Shown here one piece after another: positions 1,483 through 16,528 of a DNA stretch of 61,947 nucleotides (its first letter is position 1; each line of letters opens with the position of its first letter). The DNA comes from a virus (lineage: Duplodnaviria > Caudoviricetes): IMG/VR virus record IMGVR_UViG_3300033153_001808, positions 1 to 61,947 of that record; one strand, 5' to 3'. Under the pieces are notes generated by a model, which saw only the letters and a list, made by a program, of their open reading frames with translations, was not told the origin of the DNA and searched no databases. Both the position numbers and the translations under genes were made by a program.

Positions 1483-1494
1483 GGAGGTTCTAAT

Positions 1495-1599: not shown

Positions 1600-1677
1600 A
1601 TAGTATACTGGAGGATAGTGTGTTGTTAGGTGTGCTTGTCTTGATAGGGGTAGTTATATATGTATGGGAGGTTTTTG

Positions 1678-1875: not shown

Positions 1876-2000
1876 TCTGCTTTATGCGAGTAGATGCAGA
1901 AGAAGCAGAAAGGTATGATACATTAGAGGAAGCACAAGACGTAGTAGAAAGTCTAAAGGCAATGAACCCAGAAGACATATACCAAATAGAGGTGATATAA
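1854..2000 (+). CDS. hypothetical protein (48 aa)
   Basis: AAGGAGG RBS; MRPRYEVVCFMRVD...YQIEVI; fills gap; read manually. Confidence 0.6.
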   Translation: MRPRYEVVCFMRVDAEEAERYDTLEEAQDVVESLKAMNPEDIYQIEVI

Positions 2001-2281
2001 TGAAACAATGCAACGAATGTGCGAACCATAACTGCAATATAATCCGTAGTGGTTGGGCCTCAAAAGGCCCGAATTTTCGCTTCACTCACAGACTCTCCAG
2101 AGCAGAACTAATGACATCCTGCAAGAGCCACACAGAACTTCCTATATTCAAGCGGACAATTCTCGAACATTTATTCACTAACCCAACCCAAATAGCTAAA
2201 GCATTTGAACTCATATCAAGTGCAGGGTTGAAGTTTGTAGAAACTAATAGAAAGCCCGGGTTTCGGTTAGAACTCACATAA
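2000..2281 (+). CDS. hypothetical Cys-rich protein
   Basis: TAATG coupling, GAGGTG RBS, CxxC. Confidence 0.65.
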   Translation: MKQCNECANHNCNIIRSGWASKGPNFRFTHRLSRAELMTSCKSHTELPIFKRTILEHLFTNPTQIAKAFELISSAGLKFVETNRKPGFRLELT

Positions 2282-2308
2282 AACCGAGGCGTTGGGACAT
2301 GACTGATA

Positions 2309-2424
2309 AATGCTCCACGTAGACTGGGTCGCCTTACCCAATAGTGGAGCGTTGACTTCCCGCCTCCTCTCCTTACCGCAGAGTGCGAGCAAGTACGAGG
2401 ATGCGGTCTTGGAGGTGGGAAGTT
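2309..2424 (+). ncRNA. putative structured RNA / leader (two nested stem-loops)
   Basis: aatgctccac/gtggagcgtt (2309-2353) and gacttcccgcctcc/ggaggtgggaagtt (2354-2424), with inner helices and G-U pairs on the + strand. Confidence 0.55.
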
Positions 2425-2452
2425 TTCTTACATATAGAAAGGAGACTGAAGT

Positions 2453-2605
2453 ATGAAAATACAACAAGCTAAACTTTGTTTGGATTGTGATGAGTTGTAT
2501 ACAGGAGAAGGGTGTCCTGTGTGTGCGTCACGAGTGTATGTGTATATCAATAAATGGATAACAAATAGGATAAATAGATATGAAGACAGAACTAAAGCCC
2601 TATAA
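2453..2605 (+). CDS. small zinc-finger protein (50 aa)
   Basis: AAGGAG RBS; CLDC...CPVC; read manually. Confidence 0.6.
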   Translation: MKIQQAKLCLDCDELYTGEGCPVCASRVYVYINKWITNRINRYEDRTKAL

Positions 2606-2999
2606 TCATGAGTTATACTCCCCGCACTCCTGGCCGCCTAAGGTGGGACAGATCATAATACTCCTTGACGACCCTCGTGGGTATGTAGGAGTTCTTTTAA
2701 GCATCACAGGAGACAGGAGTGAGGTCAAACTCCTTGATGCTCAGGATGAGGTCTTGGATGTGGAACTGTCGGCTTTGCTCCCGACTGGTAAAACTCCACG
2801 AGACCTCATCCTTCAATATGAACCAACGGCTCTTAGTCTATCACAGAATCTTGCAATCGAGCGGAGTATACCGGATTTTACTCGATTGAGGAAATCTACC
2901 AAAAAAGGAGGTCCAAAGAAGAAGAAAGTGTTGACAGAAGCTAATAAGATGTTTTTGGCTAAACTTATTAAGGAGGCACTTGCAAAGAAGGGAGGTTGA
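2580..2999 (+). CDS. hypothetical protein (SH3/KOW-like N-terminus, basic C-terminus)
   Basis: ORF track; 'VGQIIIL...GYVGVLL...SEVKL'. Confidence 0.65.
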   Translation: MKTELKPYNHELYSPHSWPPKVGQIIILLDDPRGYVGVLLSITGDRSEVKLLDAQDEVLDVELSALLPTGKTPRDLILQYEPTALSLSQNLAIERSIPDFTRLRKSTKKGGPKKKKVLTEANKMFLAKLIKEALAKKGG

Positions 3000-3184
3000 T
3001 GATGGCGGTAACTATACTCGGATACCATATAAACATCATAAGAAGAAAAAGAGTTTATCAACCTATAAAATGTAAGCAGTTATGGAGAGACCAGAAGCCA
3101 AGCAAGCCAATGACTATTAGACTAACAAGGCAAAAAATGCGGAGAATAGCACAGCAGATGGGCTATACCTTACAAGAGGTGTGA
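2996..3184 (+). CDS. hypothetical basic protein
   Basis: GGAGG RBS, overlaps upstream stop. Confidence 0.55.
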   Translation: MMMAVTILGYHINIIRRKRVYQPIKCKQLWRDQKPSKPMTIRLTRQKMRRIAQQMGYTLQEV

Positions 3185-3300
3185 GGGAAGTGTGTTATGA
3201 CAAGAAAACAGGCTAAAAAGATCACGGATATGACATTACAAGAAAGACAAAAGATCATAGAAGATTACCTAATGAGGAGACTAAGGAAGGAGGATAAAAA

Positions 3301-3510
3301 ATGAAAGCAGAAATAGGAGCTGACTTACATGCACTACAACATGGTGATGGTATCTGGGTATACACCTGTGATCGTGAACTAAAGGCCACAGACTTAGCAT
3401 CACAATTCTCAGGTACCGGTGATAAAATATACTTACTTAGAGAAGAAATGACAGAACTATTGGGTTTCATGCTACGTATCGAGCTAAACAGAACAGGAGA
3501 CAAAGAATGA
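3301..3510 (+). CDS. hypothetical protein
   Basis: AAGGAGG RBS. Confidence 0.65.
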   Translation: MKAEIGADLHALQHGDGIWVYTCDRELKATDLASQFSGTGDKIYLLREEMTELLGFMLRIELNRTGDKE

Positions 3511-4397
3511 AAGCAACTAAGTCTGTACTACAGGACTTGAGAGCAGACGGGATCAAGGTATATGATAATAGTATGATCCAGTCTGCTATTTCTTGTCCAC
3601 GCTCGTACTACTACCGCCACATAAAAGGTCTTGTGCCAATAACCACAGACCAGATACCATATGGTCTATGGTTCGGGCAGATAGGCCACGGTGCACAAGA
3701 AATATGGTGGAAAGAGAAAGACGACACAGAGGCAATTCGGTACTTTGTGGATAAGTTCGAACAATATGCAGAGCCACCTAAGTTCTCGCATAAGACAGGC
3801 AAGGAGTTGGGAGCGACTTATACAGTACTGTATGGTTGTAGTCTACTAAGTGCTTATTTCAACAAATACCGCTTAGACACCAGAGAGGTTATTGAGTTAG
3901 AACTCCCGCTTGCCGAGCAGATCTCGGTGGACATATTCATGTGTGGCCGGATAGACAAGATCGTGAAGGGGCCATCTGGGCTTGTGTTTTGTGATTACAA
4001 ATTCACGAAATACATGAACGAGTATCAGGTGAATCCAAGTCCACAATTCATGAACTATAAATATCTTGTGGAAAAGCTCACAGGTGAGCACGTGTCAGGA
4101 GAGTTAGATATACTCGGTGTATCAAAGACTAAAGACGTAGACGAACTTCTCCGCAGAGAGCCATTTGACTACACACAATACCAGATGGACTGTTGGCAAG
4201 ACTCGGTTATAAACTGGGTGGAGCAGATAGAGTCTTACAAGAAAGATGGTTTCTATCCACAGACCTGGAGATGTAAGCCGTTCTTTAGGGATTGTGAGTA
4301 TTTGCCTTTGTGTACCTTGCCTACACCGGATAGTCATGATAAATTATTGGGGAGTATGTACAAAGAGGAGAGATGGGACCCGTTTATGTTGGTATAA
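3507..4397 (+). CDS. PD-(D/E)XK nuclease (RecB/Cas4-like exonuclease)
   Basis: SCPRSYYY, G..GH, ELEL, GRIDKIV, DYKFT, Q..NY and C-terminal C..C..C cysteines. Confidence 0.85.
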   Translation: MKATKSVLQDLRADGIKVYDNSMIQSAISCPRSYYYRHIKGLVPITTDQIPYGLWFGQIGHGAQEIWWKEKDDTEAIRYFVDKFEQYAEPPKFSHKTGKELGATYTVLYGCSLLSAYFNKYRLDTREVIELELPLAEQISVDIFMCGRIDKIVKGPSGLVFCDYKFTKYMNEYQVNPSPQFMNYKYLVEKLTGEHVSGELDILGVSKTKDVDELLRREPFDYTQYQMDCWQDSVINWVEQIESYKKDGFYPQTWRCKPFFRDCEYLPLCTLPTPDSHDKLLGSMYKEERWDPFMLV

Positions 4398-4411
4398 AAA
4401 GGAGTTTTATT

Positions 4412-4573
4412 ATGGAAGAAAGTACTTATATGGTTGCGTGTATTATTCTTGAGGCTAAAGCATTATGTGAAAAATTTATATTAAAGGTAGAAACAGGTAG
4501 AGCAAGAAGTGTGGAAACTTATAGGGAGTGTAAACACTTACTGGACAGTATAAACAAGAGCATGAAGCAGTAA
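4412..4573 (+). CDS. hypothetical protein
   Basis: Part of ORF 4373..4573; AAGGAG before MEEST. Confidence 0.6.
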   Translation: MEESTYMVACIILEAKALCEKFILKVETGRARSVETYRECKHLLDSINKSMKQ

Positions 4574-4593
4574 CCAAAAAGGAGGACAAAAGG

Positions 4594-4839
4594 ATGAGAC
4601 TAATGAGCTATAGAATCGAGACAGAAGAAGGTTGGTTGGAAATCAGTGAAATAAAAGGTAAGACATTGGTGGAATTAGCCATAAAGAATACCGAGGGAGA
4701 TAACTCTTTCTGTACATTAAACAGAGAAGGTTTCAATGAACTAACACGTTTGAGTTATGACATATTCTTGGAAGACCCGCCGGAAGACCCTCCAGAAGAC
4801 CCTGCACACTTCGAGAAACTATTCACAGAGGAGGACTAA
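4594..4839 (+). CDS. hypothetical acidic protein with EDPP repeat
   Basis: AAGGAGG RBS; 12-bp direct repeats near 4771-4803. Confidence 0.65.
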   Translation: MRLMSYRIETEEGWLEISEIKGKTLVELAIKNTEGDNSFCTLNREGFNELTRLSYDIFLEDPPEDPPEDPAHFEKLFTEED

Positions 4840-4994
4840 TGAAACCACCTACAGGCTTCAAAGCTGATAATGGTCAACAGTTCTCCATAAAGATCAGGAA
4901 GACAAACATTCGCTCTTACTGGATTGAACTAATAGGCACACATAGAGTGATTAAGGTCAAAAAAAGGAGTAAGAAACTAATGTGGGAGAATTAA
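4839..4994 (+). CDS. hypothetical basic protein (51 aa)
   Basis: GAGGAGG RBS, TAATG coupling; read manually. Confidence 0.55.
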   Translation: MKPPTGFKADNGQQFSIKIRKTNIRSYWIELIGTHRVIKVKKRSKKLMWEN

Positions 4995-4995
4995 G

Positions 4996-5475
4996 ATGAC
5001 ACTTCAAAGGATTAGTAGAGTAGGTACCACAAGAAGTAGGACCAGACGCTCACACGGCAGAATGGTAGCAAGTCTACGCTACATGCCTAATGGGGTTATG
5101 TTGGAGCTTGAGGCACCTTATAATAAGGACTTTACGGACACACTCAAGAAATCTGTGCCGAGTAAGAAACGTGCTTGGAACGCAGACGATAAGTCGTGGT
5201 TTATTGTAAAGGATCAGTTTGATAAACTGTCTCATCTACTGGATCAGTACTTTGATGAGACTATCTTACTAGACTTCCCGGCTCAAGAAGTCTCGGCGAG
5301 TTCGTTTGCAAAGTTGTATCTATTAGAGGGTGCTCCGTTGGAAGTCGTGAGAGCGGTCTACAAAGCACTTGCAGTGAAGTACCATCCAGACAAAGGTGGG
5401 GATCAAGGGATTATGACTACAATTAATGTAGCCTATAATGAGATTTTGGGTGAGTTGAAAAACGGAGAGGAGTAA
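4996..5475 (+). CDS. J-domain (DnaJ-like) protein with HARP-like N-terminal domain
   Basis: VRAVYKALAVKYHPDKGGD...INVAYNEI (HPD motif); N-terminal 'PYNKDF...RAWN...SWFI'. Confidence 0.8.
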   Translation: MTLQRISRVGTTRSRTRRSHGRMVASLRYMPNGVMLELEAPYNKDFTDTLKKSVPSKKRAWNADDKSWFIVKDQFDKLSHLLDQYFDETILLDFPAQEVSASSFAKLYLLEGAPLEVVRAVYKALAVKYHPDKGGDQGIMTTINVAYNEILGELKNGEE

Positions 5476-5477
5476 AA

Positions 5478-5687
5478 ATGCGTATAACAAAGGCAGTACT
5501 AGAACAAAGAAACTCAAAGCTCTTAGCAGACAACCAGGCTTTATTTAACCGGAATAAAATACTAAGAGAACAACTGGAGTTCTATCGTAAACATTCAGCA
5601 CCAGGAATACATGCAAGTATGACAATAGCACTTGAACGTGTGACAGATGCTGTTGCTCATGTTGTGGGTGACTTAAAAAGGAGGTGA
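5478..5687 (+). CDS. hypothetical coiled-coil protein
   Basis: GAGGAG RBS. Confidence 0.65.
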   Translation: MRITKAVLEQRNSKLLADNQALFNRNKILREQLEFYRKHSAPGIHASMTIALERVTDAVAHVVGDLKRR

Positions 5688-5691
5688 AAGT

Positions 5692-6303
5692 ATGACAGAA
5701 CTACAGAACACGAACACAGGAGTACAATCAGTCGCTAGACAGAAACTCAACAAGAAAGAATCAATAACTTTGAAGAGCTTGAATCCAATCGTTCAGCAGA
5801 ACAAAGACACAATCTTACTGGCGGATATTTCCGGTAGTATGAATGGAGAGAAGATGCGGGGACTTAAAGATGCACTCTCTACAGTATGGAAGCCGGGAAT
5901 ACAAGGGATTGCCTTTAATCATGAACTGTTTGAGCTTGTGGAACAGGATATACAATTCTTGGGTGCATCAGGTACTACGGCTATGTTAGAAGCATTACAG
6001 GAAGCATGGTCAAGAAATCCCTCACATATGATCTTGCTCACAGACGGTCAGCCAAGCAATGGAACCAAAGAAATCCTACAAGAGGTTAGTCATCATACAG
6101 ACATTCCTATAGACACAGTAGGTATAGGCGAGTATGGTGGGTTTGGCTACGATGCAGACTTCTTGCGAGAGGTTGCACGAATGACTGGTGGGAGGTTTAC
6201 AGACGTAGGAGAGCCTATGAAGTTGACAGAGACTTTGCAGTTTTTGTTGGCTTATAAACCAGATGGACTGGAGGCTCCGAAAGAAGGGGTTATACAACTT
6301 TGA
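5692..6303 (+). CDS. von Willebrand factor A (vWA) domain protein
   Basis: MIDAS DISGSM, GTT, LLTDG, IDTVGIG, LREVARMTGG. Confidence 0.85.
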   Translation: MTELQNTNTGVQSVARQKLNKKESITLKSLNPIVQQNKDTILLADISGSMNGEKMRGLKDALSTVWKPGIQGIAFNHELFELVEQDIQFLGASGTTAMLEALQEAWSRNPSHMILLTDGQPSNGTKEILQEVSHHTDIPIDTVGIGEYGGFGYDADFLREVARMTGGRFTDVGEPMKLTETLQFLLAYKPDGLEAPKEGVIQL

Positions 6304-6317
6304 AAGGAGGTAGGAAG

Positions 6318-6824
6318 ATGAAAACAAAACACAAGAACATGTTAGGAACACTATTGGCTTGTATGTTGTTTCTACCCACATCAGGTCAGGCCAAAGCAAC
6401 ACCACATATAGGAACAAGTACTATACAGACAAACGAGACCGTTACTCTTGAATTAACTAAGCCAGAGTTTTACTTTGGGGATTCTTTTATATACTACTCA
6501 AAAAACTCAAGTATTGCTGCATGTAGACAATTAACAGCGCCAGAAAGTGAGTATGTTGAGCTACAAGTAACAGGAATAGCACCAGGCACAGTTTATATTG
6601 TCGCAGCTTCAACAGAAAACGGAGAGTCTGAAACATATCATAGGGTTATAGTAGGCAATAAAGCTCCAGAATATAGAATGGTCCCATGTTATATGTACTA
6701 CAATGCCAGATTTGTGAACCATTACTACACCACAGATAAGAGCTTAGAAGACGATCTTGCAATATGGGGTTATAAATACATAGGTATTGCATACTATGTA
6801 TACCAAAGGGTTGAAAATGAATAG
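6318..6824 (+). CDS. secreted protein (signal peptide, Ig-like segment, C-terminal DUF5648-like motif)
   Basis: GGAGG RBS; hydrophobic signal ending AKA; 'HYYTTD...GYKYIGIAYYVY'. Confidence 0.65.
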   Translation: MKTKHKNMLGTLLACMLFLPTSGQAKATPHIGTSTIQTNETVTLELTKPEFYFGDSFIYYSKNSSIAACRQLTAPESEYVELQVTGIAPGTVYIVAASTENGESETYHRVIVGNKAPEYRMVPCYMYYNARFVNHYYTTDKSLEDDLAIWGYKYIGIAYYVYQRVENE

Positions 6825-7038
6825 ACAATTTTTGATAGACAAGATTAATAAGTTAATCCACAAAGAGTGGATCTCGGAAGGTGATCTGATGAGTATATAT
6901 GCTATACTTGTCGCCCTTCCGATCAGTGAGGGCACAGTATCTTATATGTTAGCAGACTTAGCACAGCAAATAGACGAGACTTTTAGACAACTATACATAC
7001 AAAAGGAGGACACAAAAAATGCAAATCAAACTTCCTAA
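6817..7038 (+). CDS. hypothetical protein
   Basis: Part of ORF 6787..7038 from MNRQF. Confidence 0.55.
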   Translation: MNRQFLIDKINKLIHKEWISEGDLMSIYAILVALPISEGTVSYMLADLAQQIDETFRQLYIQKEDTKNANQTS

Positions 7039-7777
7039 TCCAGAGCCATTACATCTCTTTAAACCAGAATCATACAATGTCCTATGCTACGGACCATCTG
7101 GTTCAGGCAAGACAGAATTTGCGGCCACATGGCCAACCCCAATCTTGTACATTGATACCGATCGTGGGATGACAACTGTAAAAGCCTCACCACGGATCAA
7201 AAACAAAGACAATATATACCGTGTGGCAATCTTGGATTATCCTGATGGCGTGCAAACCAACCAACCTTTAGGGTTTCTTACAATTAAACAAGTCTTGAAA
7301 GACATCCAAAGCACAGGCATGTATGGTGAGATTAAACCAGCTACAGTAGTTCTTGATACCCTGACAACTACGGCCAACTTCACGATGGCACATGTCCTAC
7401 ACGTGAACCGTCATGCAGGTCAACAACCTACCTTGCCGGATTGGGGTAAGCAGTTACGGGAACTCAAAGAGATTATAACTATTGGAGTAGGGTTTAAGTG
7501 TAATTTTATAGTTCTTGCACATGAACAGTATTTGAAAGATGAGTTGTCAGGAAGGACTTGGTGTGTTCCATTGATTACCGGGAAGTTAGCACAGGAAATT
7601 GGACTATACTTCGATGAAGTCTACCATGCAGAAGTAAAAACAGTAGGTGGGAACAGTAAATATATACTAGCCACTAAAGCAAGTGGTCTTATTACTGCAA
7701 AGTCCCGGCTTGATTTGCCGAATCCGATTGACACCCATTTTAATAGTATAAAAGGTGTGATTGAGAAGTTTCAATAG
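7019..7777 (+). CDS. Sak4-like / AAA_24 ssDNA-annealing ATPase
   Basis: Walker A YGPSGSGKT, IDTDRG, VVLDTLT, LAHE, FDEV, AKSR. Confidence 0.85.
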   Translation: MQIKLPNPEPLHLFKPESYNVLCYGPSGSGKTEFAATWPTPILYIDTDRGMTTVKASPRIKNKDNIYRVAILDYPDGVQTNQPLGFLTIKQVLKDIQSTGMYGEIKPATVVLDTLTTTANFTMAHVLHVNRHAGQQPTLPDWGKQLRELKEIITIGVGFKCNFIVLAHEQYLKDELSGRTWCVPLITGKLAQEIGLYFDEVYHAEVKTVGGNSKYILATKASGLITAKSRLDLPNPIDTHFNSIKGVIEKFQ

Positions 7778-7826
7778 AACTGAGCATAAGGGGGTGTAGT
7801 AGAGAACTACAAAAAGCCGGGAGGGA

Positions 7827-8090
7827 ATGATGTCAGAATGGTATGAAAGCATGACTAAGAAGGAACTATACGATAAATGGATAACCTGGGAGAAACACGC
7901 AAAAGTCCACAGTGCAGCAGAGGATTATTATAAAATAGAGTTGGCTAAAGCTCATGAATTACTAGGTAGGGTTATTCATCAGACCAGTGAGCGATGGGAT
8001 AGTGTCAATTTAACACGATTTTATCCTACCGATAATTTGCATCACCGGCGTCAGGTTAATAATCCAACAGGATTGAAAGGAGGTGACTAA
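7827..8090 (+). CDS. hypothetical protein
   Basis: GGAGG RBS. Confidence 0.6.
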   Translation: MMSEWYESMTKKELYDKWITWEKHAKVHSAAEDYYKIELAKAHELLGRVIHQTSERWDSVNLTRFYPTDNLHHRRQVNNPTGLKGGD

Positions 8091-8137
8091 ATGCAAGACA
8101 CAGAAACCATAAACACTCAAACAGGAGGACATTAACC

Positions 8138-8572
8138 ATGCCCACAATCGAACTTGGAGTAGATTTTAGTGATGTACAAAATGAGGACACATTTGAACCG
8201 CTTCCGAACGGAACTTATGACTTTATAACCACCAGTGCGGAACCTAAAAACTCCGCCGCTGGAAGACCTATGATTAAATGGGTCTTTACAGTCAATCATG
8301 AAGGAAAAGACTATAAACTCTTTTACAACACTGTCCTACCGTGGGAGGTAGATGGTGAGTGGGTTGTCAGTGGAGTAGGGATGCTCGTGAGTGTATGTAA
8401 AGCTCTTGGGGTTCCGTGGTCAGGCAAGAGTCTGAACTTGGAGGACTATCTTGGACTTGGAGGAGTTTGTCAGGTCGTACAGAAACCCAAACAGGTCAAG
8501 CAGTTAGACGGGAGCTATGCTGACAACACAACTGGCGAGGTCGTTAATGATATTAGTAAGTTTATTTACTAG
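8138..8572 (+). CDS. DUF669-like ssDNA-binding protein
   Basis: FEPLPNGTY...SAAGRPMIKWVF...N; follows Sak4-like gene. Confidence 0.75.
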   Translation: MPTIELGVDFSDVQNEDTFEPLPNGTYDFITTSAEPKNSAAGRPMIKWVFTVNHEGKDYKLFYNTVLPWEVDGEWVVSGVGMLVSVCKALGVPWSGKSLNLEDYLGLGGVCQVVQKPKQVKQLDGSYADNTTGEVVNDISKFIY

Positions 8573-8624
8573 ATCACTGGAAACCAGATAACACAACACA
8601 CCAATCATACAGGAGATAGAAGTT

Positions 8625-8900
8625 ATGGATACAGTAAGCGTAGAAGTTAAATCTAAGGGCCAGGTTTTAGGGTCATTCGACTATGAAGCACCGGTGGATT
8701 TGTCCGAGGCCATTGATGTTGATGGTGAGGAAAAGATCTTTAAACTCTATGCACAACAGCGGAAGATCGCATTTCTTAATGCAAAGCGCAGGGAGTTGAC
8801 CGGTGGTGGTCTGCCCAAGGCGTTGGTACAGGCACTCAAGGACGCAGATCCTGATGTGTTGAAGAAGATCGCCGCAGAAATGGGGTTGGATCTGGAGTAG
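8625..8900 (+). CDS. hypothetical protein
   Basis: AGGAG RBS. Confidence 0.75.
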   Translation: MDTVSVEVKSKGQVLGSFDYEAPVDLSEAIDVDGEEKIFKLYAQQRKIAFLNAKRRELTGGGLPKALVQALKDADPDVLKKIAAEMGLDLE

Positions 8901-8907
8901 GTAGATA

Positions 8908-8997
8908 TGTGATAAAGTCCATGCCTTTGGGATTGCGGGGAGTTTGAAAAAAACCTCTGAGGAAGGTATCACGCAACCGCAACTTTGACTTTATCAC
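8908..8997 (+). ncRNA. structured RNA array, unit 1
   Basis: gtgataaagtc (8909-8919)/gactttatcac (8987-8997), 11-bp stem; inner ttgcgg/ccgcaa. Confidence 0.55.
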
Positions 8998-9004
8998 TTT
9001 AACT

Positions 9005-9081
9005 TTGTGGGGATGCTTTGTATCGTGAGGTATAGAGGAGAAGTGGTGTGGTAGACTACATCTTTGATCACATCCCCACAA
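9005..9081 (+). ncRNA. structured RNA array, unit 2
   Basis: ttgtggggatg/catccccacaa 11-bp stem; inner ctttgtatc-GTGA-ggtatagag (GNRA loop) and ggtgtgg-taga-ctacatc hairpins. Confidence 0.65.
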
Positions 9082-9088
9082 TAAATCT

Positions 9089-9186
9089 TGTGCAATTAAC
9101 TGGCTGAGGGTCTACAAGATCTTAGGATGGTTAAATAAGCCGTAGATGTGAGGTAAGGGGACCATTGTAGGCTAGTTAGTTGCACA
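9089..9186 (+). ncRNA. structured RNA array, unit 3
   Basis: tgtgcaattaactggct/ggctagttagttgcaca 17-bp stem whose 3 deviations are all G-U; inner hairpins. Confidence 0.65.
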
Positions 9187-9192
9187 TCTTAA

Positions 9193-9259
9193 TTGTGGCA
9201 GTGTCCCGAACTATCGGATCTAATGTCTTTTGGGGGCGAAAGTATCCGAGCTGCCACAA
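9193..9259 (+). ncRNA. structured RNA array, unit 4
   Basis: ttgtggcag/ctgccacaa stem; inner tcggat/atccga; cccgaa/tttggg crossing (pseudoknot or alternative) pairing. Confidence 0.55.
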
Positions 9260-9284
9260 CAACAACTAACAGGAGGACTTAAAG

Positions 9285-9491
9285 ATGCCTTTATTTGAAG
9301 TAGCTATATTAGAAGAACCAACAAAGAAAGATCGTGAGGAAGAAGGAATTATAGAGAAACTAGTCTTTGGTCCCACAGCAGTAGTGGCCAGGGACTCACA
9401 ATCTGCCGGAATTAGTGCGGTCTTAGACTGTGCCGCAGAGATTCAGGTTGACCGTAGCCGGATGCAGGTATTAGTACGCCCTTTCGGTTAA
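9285..9491 (+). CDS. small hypothetical protein ending in RPF(G); candidate -1 frameshift gene
   Basis: AGGAGG RBS; ends CGC CCT TTC GGT TAA. Confidence 0.8.
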   Translation: MPLFEVAILEEPTKKDREEEGIIEKLVFGPTAVVARDSQSAGISAVLDCAAEIQVDRSRMQVLVRPFG

Positions 9492-9733
9492 AGGAACTAT
9501 CCGATAAGAATAGTGGAACATCAGGTGCAAGTGGGTTAAGTGGTGCGAGTGGTAGTAGTGGATCACAAGGTATTCAGGAGTGGTCTTCTGAGGTTGATTT
9601 CGACAGACAACAAGAACACGAGAGTGCCTCAAACCTATACTACCAACACACTCCAAACACATCAGGGGTGATGACAGTATTAAGTGATCAACCAGTCACA
9701 ACTTACTCAGCAAGTAGTTTAGGTGTTGACTAA
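9482..9733 (+). CDS. start-less -1 frame extension of the 9285 gene (putative frameshift product, about 149 aa in total)
   Basis: Frame open 9458-9733 with no early ATG/GTG; slippery C_CCT_TTC at 9479-9485; encodes FRLKELSDKNSGTSGASGLSGASGSSGSQG...SLGVD. Confidence 0.6.
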   Translation, partial: FRLKELSDKNSGTSGASGLSGASGSSGSQGIQEWSSEVDFDRQQEHESASNLYYQHTPNTSGVMTVLSDQPVTTYSASSLGVD

Positions 9734-9737
9734 TAAA

Positions 9738-9775
9738 GGTATGGTGTATAGAAATGTACACCATACCATTCATTT
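9738..9775 (+). terminator. hairpin with GAAA loop, terminator-like
   Basis: ggtatggtgtata-GAAA-tgtacaccatacc followed by attcattt, right after stop 9733. Confidence 0.55.
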
Positions 9776-9786
9776 AATGAACCGAA
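9764..9786. promoter_or_regulatory. palindromic repeat motif, copy 2
   Basis: taccattcatttaatgaaccgaa before AAGGAG RBS. Confidence 0.7.
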
Positions 9787-9798
9787 GGAGACTACATC

Positions 9799-10152
9799 AT
9801 GTTAGGTATTCTAGGACTATATATCTTATTGACCGGGATTCCGACCACACTCAACCACGAGATCAAGGTGACAGTAACTGCATACTCACCGGATGAACAC
9901 CAGACAGACTCTACACCTCTGCTTACAGCATCACAGAAAAGAGTATCTACTAAGTATGTAGCCCTGAGTAGGGATCTGGAGAGTGAGTATGGATTAAATT
10001 TCGGGGATTCTGTTATCTTGAACGGAGTAGAGTATGAGTTCCAAGACAGGATGAATAAGAAGTGGACTAAGAGAGTAGATAGGTTCTTTTGGAGTCGTGC
10101 AGAAGCACTACAGTTTGGTAAACAAGACGGAGTATTGGAGGTAGTAAGATGA
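9799..10152 (+). CDS. 3D-domain (MltA-like) protein, putative peptidoglycan-acting enzyme with N-terminal hydrophobic anchor
   Basis: VTVTAYS..QTDSTP..TAS..VALSRDL..FGD..QDRM..RVD. Confidence 0.75.
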   Translation: MLGILGLYILLTGIPTTLNHEIKVTVTAYSPDEHQTDSTPLLTASQKRVSTKYVALSRDLESEYGLNFGDSVILNGVEYEFQDRMNKKWTKRVDRFFWSRAEALQFGKQDGVLEVVR

Positions 10153-10313
10153 AAGATATTTTTAGTACTACAAAACTAACATCGGACCAGAAGTTGAGAT
10201 TAATGACACAGGCAATTAATTATGTACATATTCGACTTGGGTATAATGAAAAGCCAGTGTTGTCTGAGGTGTATAAAGAAATGTTTGAACTTATTACGGA
10301 GGACAATAAGTGA
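10149..10313 (+). CDS. hypothetical protein (54 aa)
   Basis: GGAGG RBS, ATGA/GTGA overlaps at both ends; read manually. Confidence 0.55.
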   Translation: MKDIFSTTKLTSDQKLRLMTQAINYVHIRLGYNEKPVLSEVYKEMFELITEDNK

Positions 10314-11560
10314 AACTCCCCATAGCAGACATAAACATAGAACACCGCATAAGAACATTTTTCGATCCAAAGAAACTAGACGAACTAGCAGAATCCATGC
10401 GGACGGTAGGTCTTATAGAACCTGTGGTAGTAGACGAAGACCATAATTTATTGGCAGGTGAGCGTAGGATAAAAGCAGCCCGGTCTTTGGGGTGGACAGA
10501 GATAACTACGGTCTATCTCAAGGACTTGAACCAGTGGCAGAAGAAGATAGTTGAACTGGAGGAGAATCTAAGGAGAGAAGAACTCACCTATGTAGAGGAA
10601 GTCAACGCAAAGGAGAGGATACATGAACTATACCAAGAAAAATACGGAAAGACAGCTCCAACAGGAGGAAGAAAGGGTGGTTGGAAAGTTAAAGATACTG
10701 CTGAACACCTTGGAATCAGCGCGGGAGCAGTTAGTCAAGACCTCCAACTTGCAAGAGCAATTAAACAAGATCCTGAACTTGGTAAACAAAAGACCAAAAT
10801 AGCCGCCAGGAGTATGATGCAAAGGAAGCAGACTATTAAGGCCCGACAACTCATGGTGGTGTTGAGTGCGGTTAAGAAACCTAAACAGGAACAGAAGTCT
10901 TTATTTCCCGCGCCTGTGGATTCCATACAACTCCTACATGGAAAAGCAGAGGTCATAATACCAACCTTAGCAGACAACTCCATAGACTGCCTAATAACAG
11001 ACCCGCCTTGGCAAGTAGAGTATGACAAAGAATTTGGGTCAGATCCACAAGCTGGTCTTGTCTTGACACAGAAAGTCCTGGCACTTCTATACCCTAAGCT
11101 AAAATCCGGGTCTCTATGTTGGATGTTCTGTGCTACCAAACACCTCATGAAGGGTACTATATATGAACTTGTCATGTCATGTGGGTATAGAATATTCGAA
11201 CAGGTTCTTATCTGGTACAAGCCTCATGTAGCACATAGCTCACATCCATATAGGGAGTTGAAGAATGACTATGAACCGGCACTATTCTTCTCAAAGGACG
11301 AACCTCGTGACTTAATAAAACCTATGTTCGCAGTTCAGGAAGCTAAGTTGATTGGGCAGAAGCTACATCCCGCACAGAAACCTACAGAAGTACTACAGAC
11401 TTTGATCTATAATTCTACTGTAGAAGGGGAGACTGTATGCGATCCATTTATGGGAAGTGGGAGTGTGTGTCAAGCGGCAAAAAAGACGGGCCGTAAAGCT
11501 ATAGGTATTGAGAAGGAACAGGAGTGGTATGATCTTGCGGTTGGAACTGTTGGAGTATAG
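10310..11560 (+). CDS. ParB/Srx-like N-terminal domain fused to beta-class N6/N4 DNA methyltransferase
   Basis: LAESM..VGLIEPVVV..AGERRIKA..EEN..R; ITDPPW, HPAQKP, DPFMGSGS. Confidence 0.9.
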   Translation: MKLPIADINIEHRIRTFFDPKKLDELAESMRTVGLIEPVVVDEDHNLLAGERRIKAARSLGWTEITTVYLKDLNQWQKKIVELEENLRREELTYVEEVNAKERIHELYQEKYGKTAPTGGRKGGWKVKDTAEHLGISAGAVSQDLQLARAIKQDPELGKQKTKIAARSMMQRKQTIKARQLMVVLSAVKKPKQEQKSLFPAPVDSIQLLHGKAEVIIPTLADNSIDCLITDPPWQVEYDKEFGSDPQAGLVLTQKVLALLYPKLKSGSLCWMFCATKHLMKGTIYELVMSCGYRIFEQVLIWYKPHVAHSSHPYRELKNDYEPALFFSKDEPRDLIKPMFAVQEAKLIGQKLHPAQKPTEVLQTLIYNSTVEGETVCDPFMGSGSVCQAAKKTGRKAIGIEKEQEWYDLAVGTVGV

Positions 11561-11568
11561 GGGGGGAG

Positions 11569-11790
11569 ATGGTAAAATGTAAAAAATGCGGGACCTATTA
11601 TAAAGTGAGTTGCCATGTCTGTTATCCTGACCCACCAACAGTTGAGACAGAGGATATATTGGCCCTAATATACAGTAGGTCTGACATTCATGGTCGAACT
11701 GTTATCGCAACACTATGTGACGAAATATTTGATCGGTCTGGTGCATTATTGGGGCGTATCCGTGAACTGTCCCAGGAGGTGATCGAATGA
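11569..11790 (+). CDS. small zinc-finger protein
   Basis: CKKC...CHVC. Confidence 0.6.
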   Translation: MVKCKKCGTYYKVSCHVCYPDPPTVETEDILALIYSRSDIHGRTVIATLCDEIFDRSGALLGRIRELSQEVIE

Positions 11791-12008
11791 AACGCATAAT
11801 AAGAACGCTAATATGGGACATAGAAGAATGCTGTGGTTGCCCTGAAATGAAGGAAAATTATTGTGTTATAGCTGAAAATGAATGTCCTTATGAGGGGTTG
11901 CCTGAATGGTGTCCATTAGAAGATGCCCCGGATATCGAGGCACCCTGTGGCGAAGACAAGAACTGCTCATCATGCCCTAAACACGGGAAGTGCGAATGGG
12001 TGAAATGA
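11787..12008 (+). CDS. Cys-rich hypothetical protein
   Basis: AGGAGG RBS; CCGC..C..C..PEWCPL. Confidence 0.65.
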   Translation: MKRIIRTLIWDIEECCGCPEMKENYCVIAENECPYEGLPEWCPLEDAPDIEAPCGEDKNCSSCPKHGKCEWVK

Positions 12009-12361
12009 AAAAATCGGCACTCTTACTCCTACTCCCTTTCCTGTGTGCATGTTCCACCGCACACAAATGGACCAAAACAGATAAGATACTAGAAACCTCT
12101 TATCTTGTCTTGCATACAGTAGATTGGTTGCAGACCAGAAATGCAGACTGGGATAGGTTTTATGAACGGAATCCTATTCTTGGTAAGAAACCGAGTACAA
12201 GTGAGGTAGATCTATACTTCTTACTGACCGTCCTTTTGCACCCGTTGGTTACACATATTATTCCACAGAAGTATAGACTATACTGGCTCATACCCACCAT
12301 AGGTATGCAAGTTATTGTAGTAGGAAACAATTTCCGTATAGGTATGGGGATTAATTTTTAA
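12005..12361 (+). CDS. putative lipoprotein/membrane protein
   Basis: MKK+hydrophobic+LCAC lipobox-like; DWLQT..YERNPILG; further TM segments. Confidence 0.65.
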   Translation: MKKSALLLLLPFLCACSTAHKWTKTDKILETSYLVLHTVDWLQTRNADWDRFYERNPILGKKPSTSEVDLYFLLTVLLHPLVTHIIPQKYRLYWLIPTIGMQVIVVGNNFRIGMGINF

Positions 12362-12379
12362 TAACAGGAGGACTAAAGA

Positions 12380-12622
12380 ATGACAACATTACCATGTGAA
12401 GGAACTTATGATGGATATGAAAATAGTTTATATCCAAGAGGCTCCAAGTCCCGGGCTTTGTTGGAGGACGAGTGGGACATGGACGCAGAAATGGATGCAG
12501 CAGAAGCAGCACTTGAATCGTATGCAGACAGACTGCATGATGAGATCCAGTGTGGGGATATTACAGAAGGACAGGCAAAGAGTAGATTTGCGAGAGCAAG
12601 GAAGAAGTCTTGTAGGAGGTAG
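12380..12622 (+). CDS. hypothetical acidic protein
   Basis: AGGAGG RBS. Confidence 0.6.
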   Translation: MTTLPCEGTYDGYENSLYPRGSKSRALLEDEWDMDAEMDAAEAALESYADRLHDEIQCGDITEGQAKSRFARARKKSCRR

Positions 12623-12627
12623 AGAAA

Positions 12628-12849
12628 ATGAAAAGGTACATAACACTTTTTCGTCTTGTTGAGACACACGATCCTTATGGCTCTAAACTAACTCTAACTT
12701 ATATAGACGAAGCAGGAAAATTAACCAAACCTCAATACAAACGTATTAAACATAAAACATATCAGAATGTTTGGAGACTCGATGGTAGATCTATTAGGTA
12801 CATGAAGCACGTAAGATTAGTAGAAAATGAGATTCCGTATATTATATAA
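12628..12849 (+). CDS. hypothetical protein
   Basis: AGGAGG RBS. Confidence 0.6.
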   Translation: MKRYITLFRLVETHDPYGSKLTLTYIDEAGKLTKPQYKRIKHKTYQNVWRLDGRSIRYMKHVRLVENEIPYII

Positions 12850-12869
12850 ACCTTAACAGGAGACACAAG

Positions 12870-13073
12870 ATGAAAAAACACATTAGACTAACCATAGACG
12901 AGAAACTATACAAACGTCTCACAACCCTCTGCACCCATCACGGAGAACAGACACATTTAATCCGTGAAGGTATTAAGATGATTGTGAGGTTTAAGGAGAA
13001 CCAGAGAAAGGAGGCTTTGGATTATGTCGACAGACAACTCAACTCAGGAGGCACGACCACAACAATTAGCTGA
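12870..13073 (+). CDS. ribbon-helix-helix (CopG/Arc-like) DNA-binding protein
   Basis: KHIRLTIDEKLYKRL...LIREGIKMIV strand-helix-helix pattern. Confidence 0.6.
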   Translation: MKKHIRLTIDEKLYKRLTTLCTHHGEQTHLIREGIKMIVRFKENQRKEALDYVDRQLNSGGTTTTIS

Positions 13074-13293
13074 CCATCATTGGGAGTTTGTAAGTAAACT
13101 AATTAGTTTATGTCAAGGATACCATGACCATAGTCAGCTATTATTAACTTGGGTTTACAAGGAGGCTTTTTTACATGGGTATAAACATGGATGTGAAGAC
13201 AGTATTAACTCCGCAGGAGTTGGCAGCGTTTTCCGAGCTAGACCAGAAGTGCACTCAAGCCAATCTGGTCCTCCCGAAGGGACTTACCCATAA
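13024..13293 (+). CDS. hypothetical protein (overlaps polymerase start)
   Basis: AAGGAGG RBS; 'LADHHWEFV...YKEAFLHGYKHG'. Confidence 0.55.
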   Translation: MSTDNSTQEARPQQLADHHWEFVSKLISLCQGYHDHSQLLLTWVYKEAFLHGYKHGCEDSINSAGVGSVFRARPEVHSSQSGPPEGTYP

Positions 13294-16200
13294 TGCACTT
13301 TGTATAGTAGGTGAGAGTCTAGGCTCCGAAGAGAACTTGAATGGCGAATACTTCATAGGCAAGGCCGGTAAACTACTAGACAAGCTCCTAAAAGAGGCCG
13401 GGATTATACGTTCAGCCTCACACATCACGAACGTAATCAAGGTCCAGCCACCAGGAAATAAGGTCGAGAGACTTCATGAGATAGGTCTATCTATACAGGA
13501 CTTCATACCTTATCTTAAGGAGGAGTTAGACACCATAAAACCCAAAGCTATACTAGCAGTGGGTCGTCATGCACTAGAGGCTCTCACCTCAGAACACGGT
13601 ATAACTAAATGGCGTGGATCTGTTCTGGAGTGTAGTTTAACTGAAAATCCGGTCAGTGTTCTACCTACCTTACATCCCTCATACCTACAACGTGGAATGA
13701 TGCACCTCTACCCCTATGTGCGTCATGATATGCAAAACTTTGCAAGACTAGGATTCGGAATCTACAAACCAGAAGACCCCTATGAACAGATCATAAACCC
13801 GTCTCTTACACAGTGTCTTGACTTCCTGTCAGACATAGCTAACACTGCAACCGAGACCTGCTTCGATATAGAAACAGTAGCTCACCAAAGAATTACCTGC
13901 ATCGGGTGGACTAATGGACCACACAAAGCAATATGTATACCTTTTAGGCACAATGGTCTCAAGTTAAGATGGGCAGAACACGAACAAATCATGCTATTGG
14001 ATGCCATGAAACAGATCTACCAGAAACCCAGGCTTTTGAAGATAGGCCAGAATATACATTATGATATACACTTCCTCTTACCTCTACTGGGTTTCCCGCG
14101 TGAACCTATATTTGACACACGATACGCTCACACCCTTCTTCATGCAGACGCCAAGCATGATCTAGGGTTTCTGACCTCTGTCTATACCAACATGAACTAC
14201 CACAAAGATGAAGCAAAAGATTGGGCTTCAAAAAAAGTACCCAAAGACGAAACCCTATGGGGTTATAATATAAAAGATGTGATCACGACCCACCGTGTCG
14301 CACAGGCTATTACTAAAGACCTCAAAGAAGCTAATCAGTATGACTTCTTCACAGGCTTCATGATGCCGTTTAGACGTGTTATATTCGACATGGAAGCACA
14401 TGGTATAAACGTGGACATGGATCTGATGAAAGAACTCCGGGACTATATACAAGAAGACGAGCTTCCTATTGCGTTGGATATAATCCACAAAATGACCGGT
14501 CGTGAGATGAATCCAAACTCCTCTAAACAGGTCGGAGAGTATCTAGCAGAAGAACTTCATCTACCTATACCACGAACCGCAAAGGGTAACTATACTGTAA
14601 AAGAAGAAATCTTAGAGGCTCTAGTTGCCCGGCATCCAAAGCATAGACAACTACTAAAGCAGATCTTGTGTGCGCGGGTCCTCAAGGCCAAAGACCTAGG
14701 AACCTATCTGACCGCTGTGGTGTCTAAGGACAACCACATGAAGTGTTCCTATGGTATGACTATTACAGGTCGTCTGACATCATCTACTAACCAAATAGAC
14801 GAAGGCACTAACTTACAGAACATACCTAAACATCTACGGCAGATCTTCATACCAGAACCAGATCAGGTCTTTGTAGATGCAGACCTATCACAAGCAGAAG
14901 CAAGAGTCATGGCGTGGCTTATGAAGTCAGACAAACTAAAAGAAGTATTCCACAGTGGACACAAGATCCACAAAATAGTAGGAGGATGGATATATGACAA
15001 AGACCCAGAGGATCTTACACCTACAGAGTATCTTATTGCGAAAAAAACAGTGCATGGTTGTGTAGATGAGAAAACCCAAGTCTTAACCTTAACTGGATGG
15101 AAGTATATCAATGAACCCTTCTTAGGTCAGATAGCACAATGGGACCCCAAAACAAAGGAAATTACGTTCGTCTATCCACACAATCTAGAGCCAATACCCT
15201 ATAAGGGTATAATGTACCGTCACACACAAGGATACTTCGATCAAATGGTAACCCCAACTCATCGTATGCCGCATTGGCAGGTACGATATGGTAGAAAGAG
15301 AAAACACGTAGATGGACCAGTGCGAGACATAGAAGCACAGAAGTTTACAAACAGACGTAATTCGTACAAACTACCTCTAGCTGGAGTATATTCTAGTTCC
15401 ACACCTAAACTAAATCCAAATGAAATGAGCTTATTAGTTGCTATTCAAGCAGACTGTTCCGTACGAAGGTCAGGGGAGGTTGAGGCCAACTTTACAAAAG
15501 GCTACAAAATAGCTAGATTAAAATATCTACTGAAACAATTAAGAATAGACTATACTGAGTATCCCTATAAAGATACTGGTTCTAGCTTCTACATACCAAA
15601 ACAATGGAAGGTAGTAGCACTATTAAATTGTTTTGAGAAACATAAAACGTTCAGTTTCGATGCAATATTAAATAACACTCCTAAAGTCTTGGATACATTT
15701 ATAAGAGAATTAGGTTTTTGGGACGGTAGAGTTAACAAAGAACAGGATGGAACAATAAACTCTTGGCAGTATTATACTACAAACGCACAAAACGCAGAAG
15801 TAGCTGCAACAATAGCACACCTAACAAACAAACGTGCTGTTGTGAGTATGCGTGAGAATTGGTGGGAGGAAAAAAGAACCAAAGATCTTTACACTGTGAG
15901 TATTTCATGCTACCCTTTAGGGGATCTAACAGAAATGAAAACAGAGATAATAAAAGACTTTGGTGGTGTTGTTTATTGTCCTACGGTGATGTCTTCTTAT
16001 TTTCTTATACGTCGTAATGGTCATATATCAATAACAGGAAACTCAAATTACCAAATGGGAGAACGTAAATTTGCGACAATTATCGAACGACCAGTTGCGG
16101 ACGCTAGAGAGATCATGCGTAAGTATTCTAAGATCGTACCGGAACTACCTCAGTATCATAAAGACATTCAAAGAGAAATAGAAACGACTAGAAAACTGGT

Positions 16201-16528
16201 AACCATGTATGGCAGGACGAGGATCTTCACAGGTCGGTTAGACGACTCGACCTTTAAAAGTGGCTATGCACAACTACCACAGAGTACAGTAGTAGATACA
16301 ATAAATCTCGGGATTCTTGGTCTATGGTGCATAACTCCTAGAAGTGTGCATTTCATAACCCAGACACATGATAGTATCTTACTCTCTATAGATCCCAATA
16401 AGGTAGAGTATTGGAATAAGTATATAAAAGCCCATCTTGAAACATTGAGAGAGTTGGAGATAAATGGCGATAGTCTTGTAATTCCACTGGATATTGAACC
16501 CCCTAAAGATAACTGGTACGGTGCTTAA
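13175..16528 (+). CDS. polA: DNA polymerase A with N-terminal uracil-DNA-glycosylase-like domain, 3'-5' exonuclease and intein
   Basis: UDG: VGESLG..F.GKAG..ITNVIK..LHPSY; exonuclease FDIET, GQNIHYD, YNIKD; polymerase TGRLTS..NLQNIP, DLSQAE, AKKTVHG/SNY, THDS. Confidence 0.92.
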   Translation: MGINMDVKTVLTPQELAAFSELDQKCTQANLVLPKGLTHNALCIVGESLGSEENLNGEYFIGKAGKLLDKLLKEAGIIRSASHITNVIKVQPPGNKVERLHEIGLSIQDFIPYLKEELDTIKPKAILAVGRHALEALTSEHGITKWRGSVLECSLTENPVSVLPTLHPSYLQRGMMHLYPYVRHDMQNFARLGFGIYKPEDPYEQIINPSLTQCLDFLSDIANTATETCFDIETVAHQRITCIGWTNGPHKAICIPFRHNGLKLRWAEHEQIMLLDAMKQIYQKPRLLKIGQNIHYDIHFLLPLLGFPREPIFDTRYAHTLLHADAKHDLGFLTSVYTNMNYHKDEAKDWASKKVPKDETLWGYNIKDVITTHRVAQAITKDLKEANQYDFFTGFMMPFRRVIFDMEAHGINVDMDLMKELRDYIQEDELPIALDIIHKMTGREMNPNSSKQVGEYLAEELHLPIPRTAKGNYTVKEEILEALVARHPKHRQLLKQILCARVLKAKDLGTYLTAVVSKDNHMKCSYGMTITGRLTSSTNQIDEGTNLQNIPKHLRQIFIPEPDQVFVDADLSQAEARVMAWLMKSDKLKEVFHSGHKIHKIVGGWIYDKDPEDLTPTEYLIAKKTVHGCVDEKTQVLTLTGWKYINEPFLGQIAQWDPKTKEITFVYPHNLEPIPYKGIMYRHTQGYFDQMVTPTHRMPHWQVRYGRKRKHVDGPVRDIEAQKFTNRRNSYKLPLAGVYSSSTPKLNPNEMSLLVAIQADCSVRRSGEVEANFTKGYKIARLKYLLKQLRIDYTEYPYKDTGSSFYIPKQWKVVALLNCFEKHKTFSFDAILNNTPKVLDTFIRELGFWDGRVNKEQDGTINSWQYYTTNAQNAEVAATIAHLTNKRAVVSMRENWWEEKRTKDLYTVSISCYPLGDLTEMKTEIIKDFGGVVYCPTVMSSYFLIRRNGHISITGNSNYQMGERKFATIIERPVADAREIMRKYSKIVPELPQYHKDIQREIETTRKLVTMYGRTRIFTGRLDDSTFKSGYAQLPQSTVVDTINLGILGLWCITPRSVHFITQTHDSILLSIDPNKVEYWNKYIKAHLETLRELEINGDSLVIPLDIEPPKDNWYGA
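15059..16042 (+). mobile_element. intein with LAGLIDADG-type endonuclease (328 aa) in polymerase motif B
   Basis: N-terminal CVDEKTQVLTLTGW, block B VTPTHRM, LLVAIQAD / FIRELGFWDG, C-terminal VYCPTV..FLIRRNG..ITGN followed by Ser+1. Confidence 0.9.

Follow-up and report, generated by a model that had tools for sequence, protein, structure and literature searches.

A viral DNA stretch of 61,947 nucleotides (Duplodnaviria; Caudoviricetes; IMG/VR record IMGVR_UViG_3300033153_001808, positions 1 to 61,947; hereafter the window) carries at positions 8908-9259 a tandem array of four different stem-closed units, placed in the gap between two small genes, A and B, of a phage early operon. As a feature the array is real, non-random and not catalogued so far, and RNA is its most likely nature, at least for the second and third units. 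We tentatively prefer, at somewhat short of an even chance, the reading that the units are co-transcribed stem-closed RNA modules which are excised from early mRNA by host RNases, with their common end as the handle.

Anatomy and folding of the four units

The gap 8901-9284 has 384 nt and lies between gene A (8625-8900) and gene B (9285-9491), all on the + strand. A total of 332 of its 384 bases are tiled by four units with lengths of 67-98 nt, whose coordinates and sequences are exactly those claimed in a previous reading of the letters alone (the sequence-only reading). The units and the linkers between them are as follows.

8908-8997, + strand: unit 1 (U1), 90 nt; 11-bp closing stem around a branched interior; -27.0 kcal/mol
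8998-9004, + strand: linker 1, UUUAACU (TTTAACT); AU-rich, unpaired when the whole stretch is folded
9005-9081, + strand: unit 2 (U2), 77 nt; three-way junction; -34.2 kcal/mol
9082-9088, + strand: linker 2, UAAAUCU (TAAATCT)
9089-9186, + strand: unit 3 (U3), 98 nt; long irregular rod; -41.3 kcal/mol
9187-9192, + strand: linker 3, UCUUAA (TCTTAA)
9193-9259, + strand: unit 4 (U4), 67 nt; closing stem plus inner hairpin; -25.3 kcal/mol

The base of the closing stem reads U|GUG...CAC|A in all four units, except that a U follows the stem in U1. The closing stems of U1 (GTGATAAAGTC/GACTTTATCAC; arms GUGAUAAAGUC/GACUUUAUCAC) and U2 (TTGTGGGGATG/CATCCCCACAA) are each 11 bp long and entirely Watson-Crick. 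The stem of U3 (TGTGCAATTAACTGGCT/GGCTAGTTAGTTGCACA) has 17 pairs including three G-U on the + strand, and that of U4 (TTGTGGCAGT/GCTGCCACAA; arms UUGUGGCAGU/GCUGCCACAA) has 10 pairs including one G-U. U2 and U4 have the longer common ends UUGUGG...CCACAA. TGTG occurs six times in the gap, and four of these six occurrences are unit starts. In U2 the closing stem (UUGUGGGGAUG/CAUCCCCACAA) continues directly into a helix of 9 bp with a GUGA tetraloop at its tip (9025-9028), and a second hairpin then follows; in U3 there are three more helices beyond the closing stem, with internal loops between them. U4 bears the motifs GUCCCGA at 9203 and GGCGAAAG at 9235.

An alignment of the units leaves only TGTG and three scattered columns invariant, in agreement with the earlier claim that the units differ in sequence yet have common ends: the units do not align and the stem base is kept. 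The GNRA loop noticed earlier is the GUGA of U2. The pseudoknot suggested for U4 is a possible candidate of five pairs, read from the complementarity of GUCCC (9203-9207) to GGGGC (9232-9236).

Chance formation of the closing stems was assessed by counting sequences that hold four non-overlapping stems, each of at least 9 pairs with a span of 55-110. When the gap was dinucleotide-shuffled 2000 times, two shuffles reached four such stems. In the phage as a whole, they were present in 2 of 1232 segments of 384 nt on the + strand and in 1 of 1232 on the - strand. All four units fold better than shuffles on the + strand, as the sequence-only reading had required of real structures, with z scores for U1 to U4 of -2.82 (1 of 200 shuffles as good), -5.75, -6.67 and -3.16 (0 of 200 for each of these three). 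The corresponding - strand scores are -3.81, -3.02, -2.52 and -2.36, with -19.75 kcal/mol for the - strand of U3. Folded as a single RNA, 8890-9290 reaches -136.6 kcal/mol on the + strand (z -5.74; 0 of 100 shuffles as good) and -93.75 kcal/mol on the - strand (z -1.74; 6 of 100).

The closing stems amount to near-perfect inverted repeats, and the interiors were therefore folded separately. Those of U2 and U3 are structured on the + strand (z -3.16, 0 of 200 shuffles as good, and z -2.43, 2 of 200) and not on the - strand (z +0.62 and +0.38). The interior of U1 gives z -0.38 on the + strand (70 of 200) and -0.56 on the - strand; the values for U4 are -0.10 (83 of 200) and +0.73. Thus only the interiors of U2 and U3 exceed shuffles. 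G-U pairs account for 24 of the 118 predicted pairs, three of them being in the closing stem of U3. The earlier argument for RNA from strand and G-U pairs holds in part: the asymmetry favours a + strand transcript and the deviations in the U3 stem are all G-U, whereas the stems of U1 and U2 are all Watson-Crick. Evidence for + strand RNA is good for U2 and U3, because their interiors are structured on the + strand only and the U3 stem has three G-U pairs; for U1 and U4 the case comes from the closing stems and the context.

The earlier statement that the array is neither tRNA nor CRISPR nor an Rfam family is borne out by Rfam 15, ARAGORN and the absence of direct repeats. No Rfam 15 family matched the whole window at gathering thresholds, and at E values up to 10 the region 8800-9400 gave two chance matches only, both on the - strand (snoZ223, 16.5 bits with a gathering threshold of 45; HSR-omega_2, 12.8 bits with a threshold of 55). 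ARAGORN predicted no tRNA or tmRNA gene in the window and RF00005 had no match in 8800-9400. T-loop (UUCRANYC), box C and CsrA-type motifs are absent from 8901-9284. A type III toxin-antitoxin array, a CRISPR array and an RNA anti-CRISPR were rejected, there being no near-identical direct repeats and no direct-repeat family that tiles the gap. An intrinsic terminator was rejected as well, as 8900-9284 holds no short GC-rich hairpin with a U tract. CUGAGGA at 8957 fits the hammerhead motif CUGANGA, yet there is no GAAA/stem III arrangement by eye and no covariance model match. The core sites of integron attC do not fit the unit ends; no systematic integrase search was made.

No other copy of the units was found in the phage, the best same-sense match being 13 nt (E 0.29). 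Complementarity to phage genes, which had been suggested for the loops, was not borne out, with no antisense match in the rest of the phage (best E 0.29). The exact arms of U2 with a spacer of 45-65 nt had one match in 596 Gb of prokaryote genomes, in a coding region and with an unrelated interior, which is close to the chance expectation (about one, by our estimate). A covariance model of U2 matched nothing beyond U2 itself in 254,221 bases from 21 sources.

Genes A and B and the slot after gene A

The genes and signals nearest to the array are listed below.

8625-8900, + strand: gene A, 91 aa; stop codon 8 nt before unit 1
9260-9284, + strand: leader of gene B; ribosome-binding site AGGAGG; unit 4 and gene B have no terminator between them
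9285-9491, + strand: gene B, 68 aa; no Pfam or PHROG family
9738-9767, + strand: 13-pair terminator-like hairpin

Gene A likewise has no Pfam or PHROG family. A total of 63 homologues were found in a large protein collection, all unnamed or annotated as 'hypothetical', the closest proteins being 97%, 90% and 80% identical. The AlphaFold2 model of protein A (pLDDT 90) consists of a beta-hairpin and four helices, and Foldseek found no fold match for it in the PDB (best E 2.3). Searches of the ESM Atlas with genes A and B returned viral hypothetical clusters only. Nothing marks protein A or B as RNA-binding.

Among the matches listed, loci with gene A come from viral contigs (L002, L062 and L063) and metagenome contigs (L059, L060 and L061); genome contigs searched for such loci gave none, and DUF669 and ParB-methylase queries for homologous arrays gave nothing useful. 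The gene order AAA_24-SSB-A-gap-ParB/MTase is common to the window, L002, L059, L060 and L062. Gene A is thus the marker of true relatives and the syntenic anchor of a non-coding slot. L061 and L063 end too early to show what follows gene A. In four of the five loci with downstream sequence, the window included, gene A is followed by a non-coding gap of at least 290 nt among the matches listed (384 nt in the window, 360 nt in L059, 400 nt in L060 and 290 nt in L062; 99 nt in L002). L059 has a further gap of 263 nt after an ORF (open reading frame) of 57 aa. The sequence-only reading had named both flanking genes as candidate partners of the array. For gene A the suggestion holds insofar as a long non-coding gap follows it in four of five loci, the link being one of position.

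The gaps after gene A have no similarity to the window or to each other beyond words of 8-13 nt, and TTAACTTT recurs near gene A in some loci without enrichment. Stem-closed structures are found in them nonetheless. The gap of L060 holds the closing stems GGGCGGGC/GCCCGCCC and GUGCUCCCU/GGGAGCAC. Two units of L059 (3300-3428 and 3814-4044), on either side of the 57-aa ORF, have the common stem ends CTGGCGGCGGC...GGCCCGCCAGG, with a single compensatory pair (U-A to C-G) as the difference between them, an indication that stem-closed units were duplicated inside this phage. The gap of L062 folds with z -3.18 on the + strand and -2.51 on the - strand, and that of L002 with z -1.38. Judged from these comparisons, the conserved item is a structured non-coding slot after gene A with changing content, not an RNA family.

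The proposed partnership with gene B was not upheld. A total of 55 viral loci carry homologues of gene B, and in 46 of them the gap upstream is at most 65 nt by a crude rule in which ORFs of at least 60 aa were counted. No clustered TGTG...CACA stems were found in the 55 loci. None of the 55 shares the AAA_24, SSB or A neighbours of the window, and therefore gene B is not taken as a partner of the array. Gene B is a small, promiscuous phage gene without a specific tie to the array.

Several other structured RNAs were observed near gene B homologues. L047 has a tRNA gene at 2496-2570, 430 nt upstream of the homologue, which ARAGORN reports as 'tRNA-???' (anticodon tt) and the Rfam tRNA model scores at 58.7 bits; tRNAs are also present in L045, L046 and L053. 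In L052, from an unrelated high-GC phage, a YrlA-like tRNA mimic at 2695-2809 lies about 190 nt upstream of the homologue. It scores 31.3 bits (below the gathering threshold of 69; E 6e-5 in a search of 501 nt) and is clearly recognisable by its T arm and D arm, and the Rsr-binding motif is not preserved in it; another stem-closed unit may come after it. L053 has a stem-closed unit of 79 nt at 2897-2975 (the same in L054), with a perfect closing stem of 16 bp, 25 nt upstream of the homologue. The leader of L053, ...CACACAACAGGAG..., resembles ...CACAACAACAACUAACAGGAGG... of the window.

Proposed excision from early mRNA and competing explanations

The gap 8901-9284 has no + strand ORF of at least 30 aa. 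Neither a promoter-like nor a terminator-like site was found on the + strand in 8900-9284; promoter-like sites across 7000-11000 number 7 against 7.2 expected. The + strand terminator-like site nearest to the gap is at 9573 and the strongest at 9738-9767, and the latter hairpin is likely the 3' end of a transcription unit that holds gene A, the array and gene B. Because the genes on both sides are read in one direction and the gap between them lacks its own promoter and terminator, the units were taken as part of an A-array-B message, and the polycistronic context proposed earlier is the natural reading.

In the reading preferred here, each unit would be a self-folding RNA domain clamped by a terminal helix with the base U|GUG...CAC|A(U), and the clamped helices would be joined by AU-rich single-stranded linkers of 6-7 nt. 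Host endoribonucleases would cut in or beside clamps and linkers; candidate enzymes are an RNase III type acting on coaxial stems of about 20-34 bp, RNase E in the AU-rich linkers, and RNase P at the U|G junction. Such cleavage would part the message of A from that of B, each keeping a protective hairpin (A at its 3' end, B at its 5' end). It would also turn U2 and U3, at the least, into stable small RNAs with lengths of 77 and 98 nt, and their differing interiors would then be the 'cargo'. That the array is transcribed, cut and released, and that its cargos act in trans at all, is inferred.

The clamp-linker-clamp regularity, the identical stem base and the roughly 20-35 stacked pairs in U2 and U3 are as expected of cutting signals. 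Coaxial double-stranded RNA of at least 20 bp, as used by RNase III, is found in silico in U3 (35 predicted pairs) and in U2 (11+9 contiguous on the 5' strand). At the positions read by RNase P, U-1, G+1 and C+72 occur in all four units and A+73 in three of four; there is no CCA and no T-loop. According to PMC11143913, the substrates cut by RNase P include the M3 and C4 RNAs of phages, polycistronic mRNAs and model hairpins, and the determinants of cutting include G+1/C+72, N-1 and the discriminator. T4 pre-tRNAs lie less than 5 nt apart and some are without CCA, according to the same source.

A second site was found in the gap 2281-2453; apart from this gap and 8901-9284, the early operon has no clear gap. 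The site holds two abutting units.

2309-2352, + strand: stem-closed unit with a 10-pair stem
2354-2425, + strand: stem-closed unit with a 14-pair stem

The site folds at -66.3 kcal/mol on the + strand (z -4.04; 0 of 200 shuffles as good) and at -52.6 kcal/mol on the - strand (z -1.99). The units at 2309-2425 have no GUG/CAC ends. The site displays the same style and strand bias as the array, and we count it in favour of excision, as we do the long gaps with strong closing stems after gene A homologues and the compensatory pair of L059. A U-rich stretch follows the second stem.

Several findings weigh against excised modules. The common handle is just 3-6 bp long, and the U1 and U4 interiors are at shuffle level, so half of the 'cargo' may be mere hairpin. 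With DNA parameters the two strands fold about equally (z -3.73 and -3.44), since the closing stems are near-perfect inverted repeats; such near-palindromic clamps therefore do not in themselves indicate RNA. The -1 U pairs with the +73 A in U2-U4, which together with the lack of CCA and T-loop is unlike a good RNase P substrate, and so no single enzyme is favoured. Relatives have four long gaps, of which just two, those of L060 and L062, beat shuffles: the L059 gaps give z -0.32 and -0.57, not above shuffles, and the L060 gap gives z -2.95 on the + strand and -3.78 on the - strand, the latter being as good. The gaps of L059 and L060 are also overlapped by + strand ORFs of 47 and 60 aa, which are possible genes. 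No homologous units were found in the relatives reached, and hence no covarying pair within the window's own units.

A comparison with known systems places the array near several of them. In the early mRNA of T7, RNase III hairpins (R0.3-R1.3) stand between genes, and rRNA operons have processing stalks. Like the array, the T7 sites are irregular intercistronic hairpins of about 20 bp or more on the mRNA strand of an early transcript, and cutting leaves protective stems. However, the T7 hairpins are single and alike, whereas the four units are unrelated, partly branched, and in a row without a gene between them; they share 3-6 bp at the stem base only, and their cleavage is a prediction. REP/BIME elements are clusters of intergenic palindromes in enterobacterial operons, which are transcribed and stabilise the upstream mRNA. 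They resemble the array as palindromes clustered inside an operon, but they are about 35 nt long and belong to one dispersed multi-copy family, unlike the unique and mutually unrelated units of 67-98 nt. The T4 RNAs rnaC and rnaD (species 1 and 2) are tandem, co-transcribed, structured non-tRNA species of 119-139 nt with spacers of 1 nt and 6 nt, and the T4 record describes them only as small, stable RNAs, without a function. They differ from the array in that they end a tRNA cluster and that rnaC has a tRNA T-arm (CCGGGUUCGAAUCCCGG), while the window has no tRNA gene and the gap no T-loop.

The bacterial and phage Y RNAs (YrlA/YrlB, RF02553) are also of about 70-120 nt with a helix formed by their ends, and several different ones adjoin and are processed from one precursor, as described in PMC4201824. 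The array differs from them in having no covariance model match, no tRNA-like module and no nearby Rsr gene, and its Rsr motif is misplaced. Organelle tRNA punctuation and 't-elements' (PMC1920247) are similar in being stem-closed structures between coding regions that are cut to define mRNA ends; t-elements are recognisably tRNA-like and cut by RNase P and RNase Z, whereas the units are not tRNA-like. In the full texts searched, no account turned up of a phage operon with stem-closed RNA units that stand in tandem and are unrelated to one another. The array design is more modular than any found described there, while resembling intercistronic processing signals and phage stable-RNA clusters.

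Competing explanations differ in whether the units act within the message, as DNA, as insertions or as decoys. That they are purely cis mRNA elements, a barrier or stabiliser stack in the manner of REP/BIME clusters or T7 R-sites, or signals for pausing or attenuation, that tune A and B and have no function once released, is possible though on balance doubtful. The placement between co-oriented cistrons in the absence of a separate promoter or terminator, the U1 and U4 interiors at shuffle level, the lack of antisense targets in the phage, the similar hairpin pair in another gap of the early operon, and a slot that stays structured among relatives without keeping unit sequence are all in line with it. 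Yet four large, differing, branched units with a common base and regular linkers are more than a stabiliser would require, structure inside U2 and U3 is significant and confined to one strand, and no known stabiliser cluster is made of unrelated units. A DNA-level element, be it single-strand initiation or origin signals, paired protein-binding sites or recombination hot spots, we regard as unlikely. The gap does lie inside a replication/recombination module (PD-(D/E)XK, AAA_24, DUF669 SSB, ParB-methylase, PolA and DUF3987), its arms are near-perfect palindromes with strands about equal under DNA parameters, and the ends NCACA/TGTGN resemble the DnaA box core at 6-7 of 9 positions by eye. Against this stand the absence of iterons or tandem direct repeats, a GC content of 0.415-0.445 without an AT-rich trough, a GC skew that is positive throughout the gap without a switch, and the lack of similar repeats in the slot of relatives. 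The restriction of U2 and U3 interior structure to + strand RNA, and the three U3 stem mismatches that are all G-T on the + strand, also speak for RNA.

It is quite improbable that the units are selfish or decaying palindromic insertions (MITE-/REP-like) or local duplications without a function for the phage. TG...CA-type termini, as seen at the unit ends, are typical of transposons, the slot content is fully replaced between relatives, and a unit is duplicated in L059. Nevertheless, no unit has a second copy in the phage, the U2 arms have just the one chance-level match in the 596 Gb of prokaryote genomes, and no consistent target-site duplication was seen by eye; the units are mutually unrelated, and four families must then have landed side by side at a spacing of 6-7 nt. 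Still less is expected of Y-RNA-like or tRNA-neighbour decoys that bind host Ro/Rsr, a tRNA enzyme or a defence nuclease, which we consider very improbable. Terminal stems formed by the ends and several RNAs per precursor are reminiscent of YrlA/YrlB of M. smegmatis in PMC4201824, where a GNCGAAN0-1G near the 5' end is given as the Rsr-binding strand. GGCGAAAG of U4 fits this motif, GUCCCGA is near GGUCCGA, and loci of gene B include the YrlA-like mimic of L052 and tRNAs. But the GNCGAA motif (9235) falls within the 3' half of U4 instead of close to the 5' end, and by our estimate about 0.2 chance matches are expected per gap. The gap gave no YrlA or Y_RNA match at E up to 10, and neither a T-loop nor a tRNA-like module (D arm, T arm or acceptor mimic) is present in it. 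No TROVE domain (PF05731) was found in six frames of the 61,947 bases, where positive controls worked, and the mimic of L052 scores below the gathering threshold of 69 in a phage that is not a relative.

An extension of the excision reading, which we hold to be rather unlikely, is that the short helix base and the AU-rich linkers mark unrelated folds for excision, so that the array would deliver a cocktail of decoy or sponge RNAs and the slot after gene A would be a hot spot for cargo swapping. Such aptamer-like RNAs would target proteins of the host that handle RNA or act in defence. Much less is charted of the non-coding RNAs of phages than of their proteins, and a common nuclease-readable clamp, if true, would provide a simple rule to find phage small RNAs without a sequence family, a natural scaffold by which one transcript could express several RNAs, and a further field in which to search for RNA-based counter-defence. 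Should the units do no more than stabilise mRNA, the array would be unusually elaborate yet ordinary intercistronic processing.

The source phage and its early operon

The virus record of 61,947 bases has a completeness estimate of 93%. Early and replication genes are tightly packed on the + strand from about 1 to 19,300, and include the following.

3507-4397, + strand: PD-(D/E)XK nuclease
7019-7777, + strand: AAA_24 ATPase
8138-8572, + strand: DUF669/SSB
10310-11560, + strand: ParB-N6 methylase
13175-16528, + strand: PolA with an N-terminal UDG-superfamily domain
17503-18702, + strand: DUF3987 protein, likely a primase-helicase as inferred from the Pfam name

The late genes are on the - strand and encode SU10-type capsid and adaptor proteins, a portal, a large terminase and a collagen-like fibre. 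The region 8600-9500 had no blastn match in 50,697 phage records, gene B had no tblastn match in cultured phages, and the best identity of PolA to cultured phages is 29%. By sequence comparison, the source phage is a novel SU10-like lineage of about 62 kb without a cultured relative.

PolA is a family A DNA polymerase fused to an N-terminal uracil-DNA-glycosylase superfamily domain. A protein of 2255 aa (34584-41351, - strand) contains serial Glycos_transf_1, Methyltransf_24, GT_PLOD, DUF6625, FkbM and Glyco_transf_9 domains; this sugar-modifying enzyme is unusually large for a 62-kb phage. It is adjoined by a collagen-repeat protein of 1058 aa (31395-34571). Two paralogous HNH-AP2 endonuclease genes (58292-58804 and 61288-61788, - strand), likely homing endonucleases, are located on both sides of the terminase region.

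The stretch 9492-9798 after gene B may be mostly non-coding, its sole ORF being one of 43 aa with a GTG start at 9540-9671. A long imperfect hairpin was observed there at about 9551-9645, and 9489-9800 folds with z -3.17. We further found a perfect 11-nt inverted repeat, CCTGATGTGTT (8850-8860) and AACACATCAGG (9656-9666), whose arms are 795 nt apart; the array, gene B and the terminal part of gene A lie between them, and the repeat may be due to chance.

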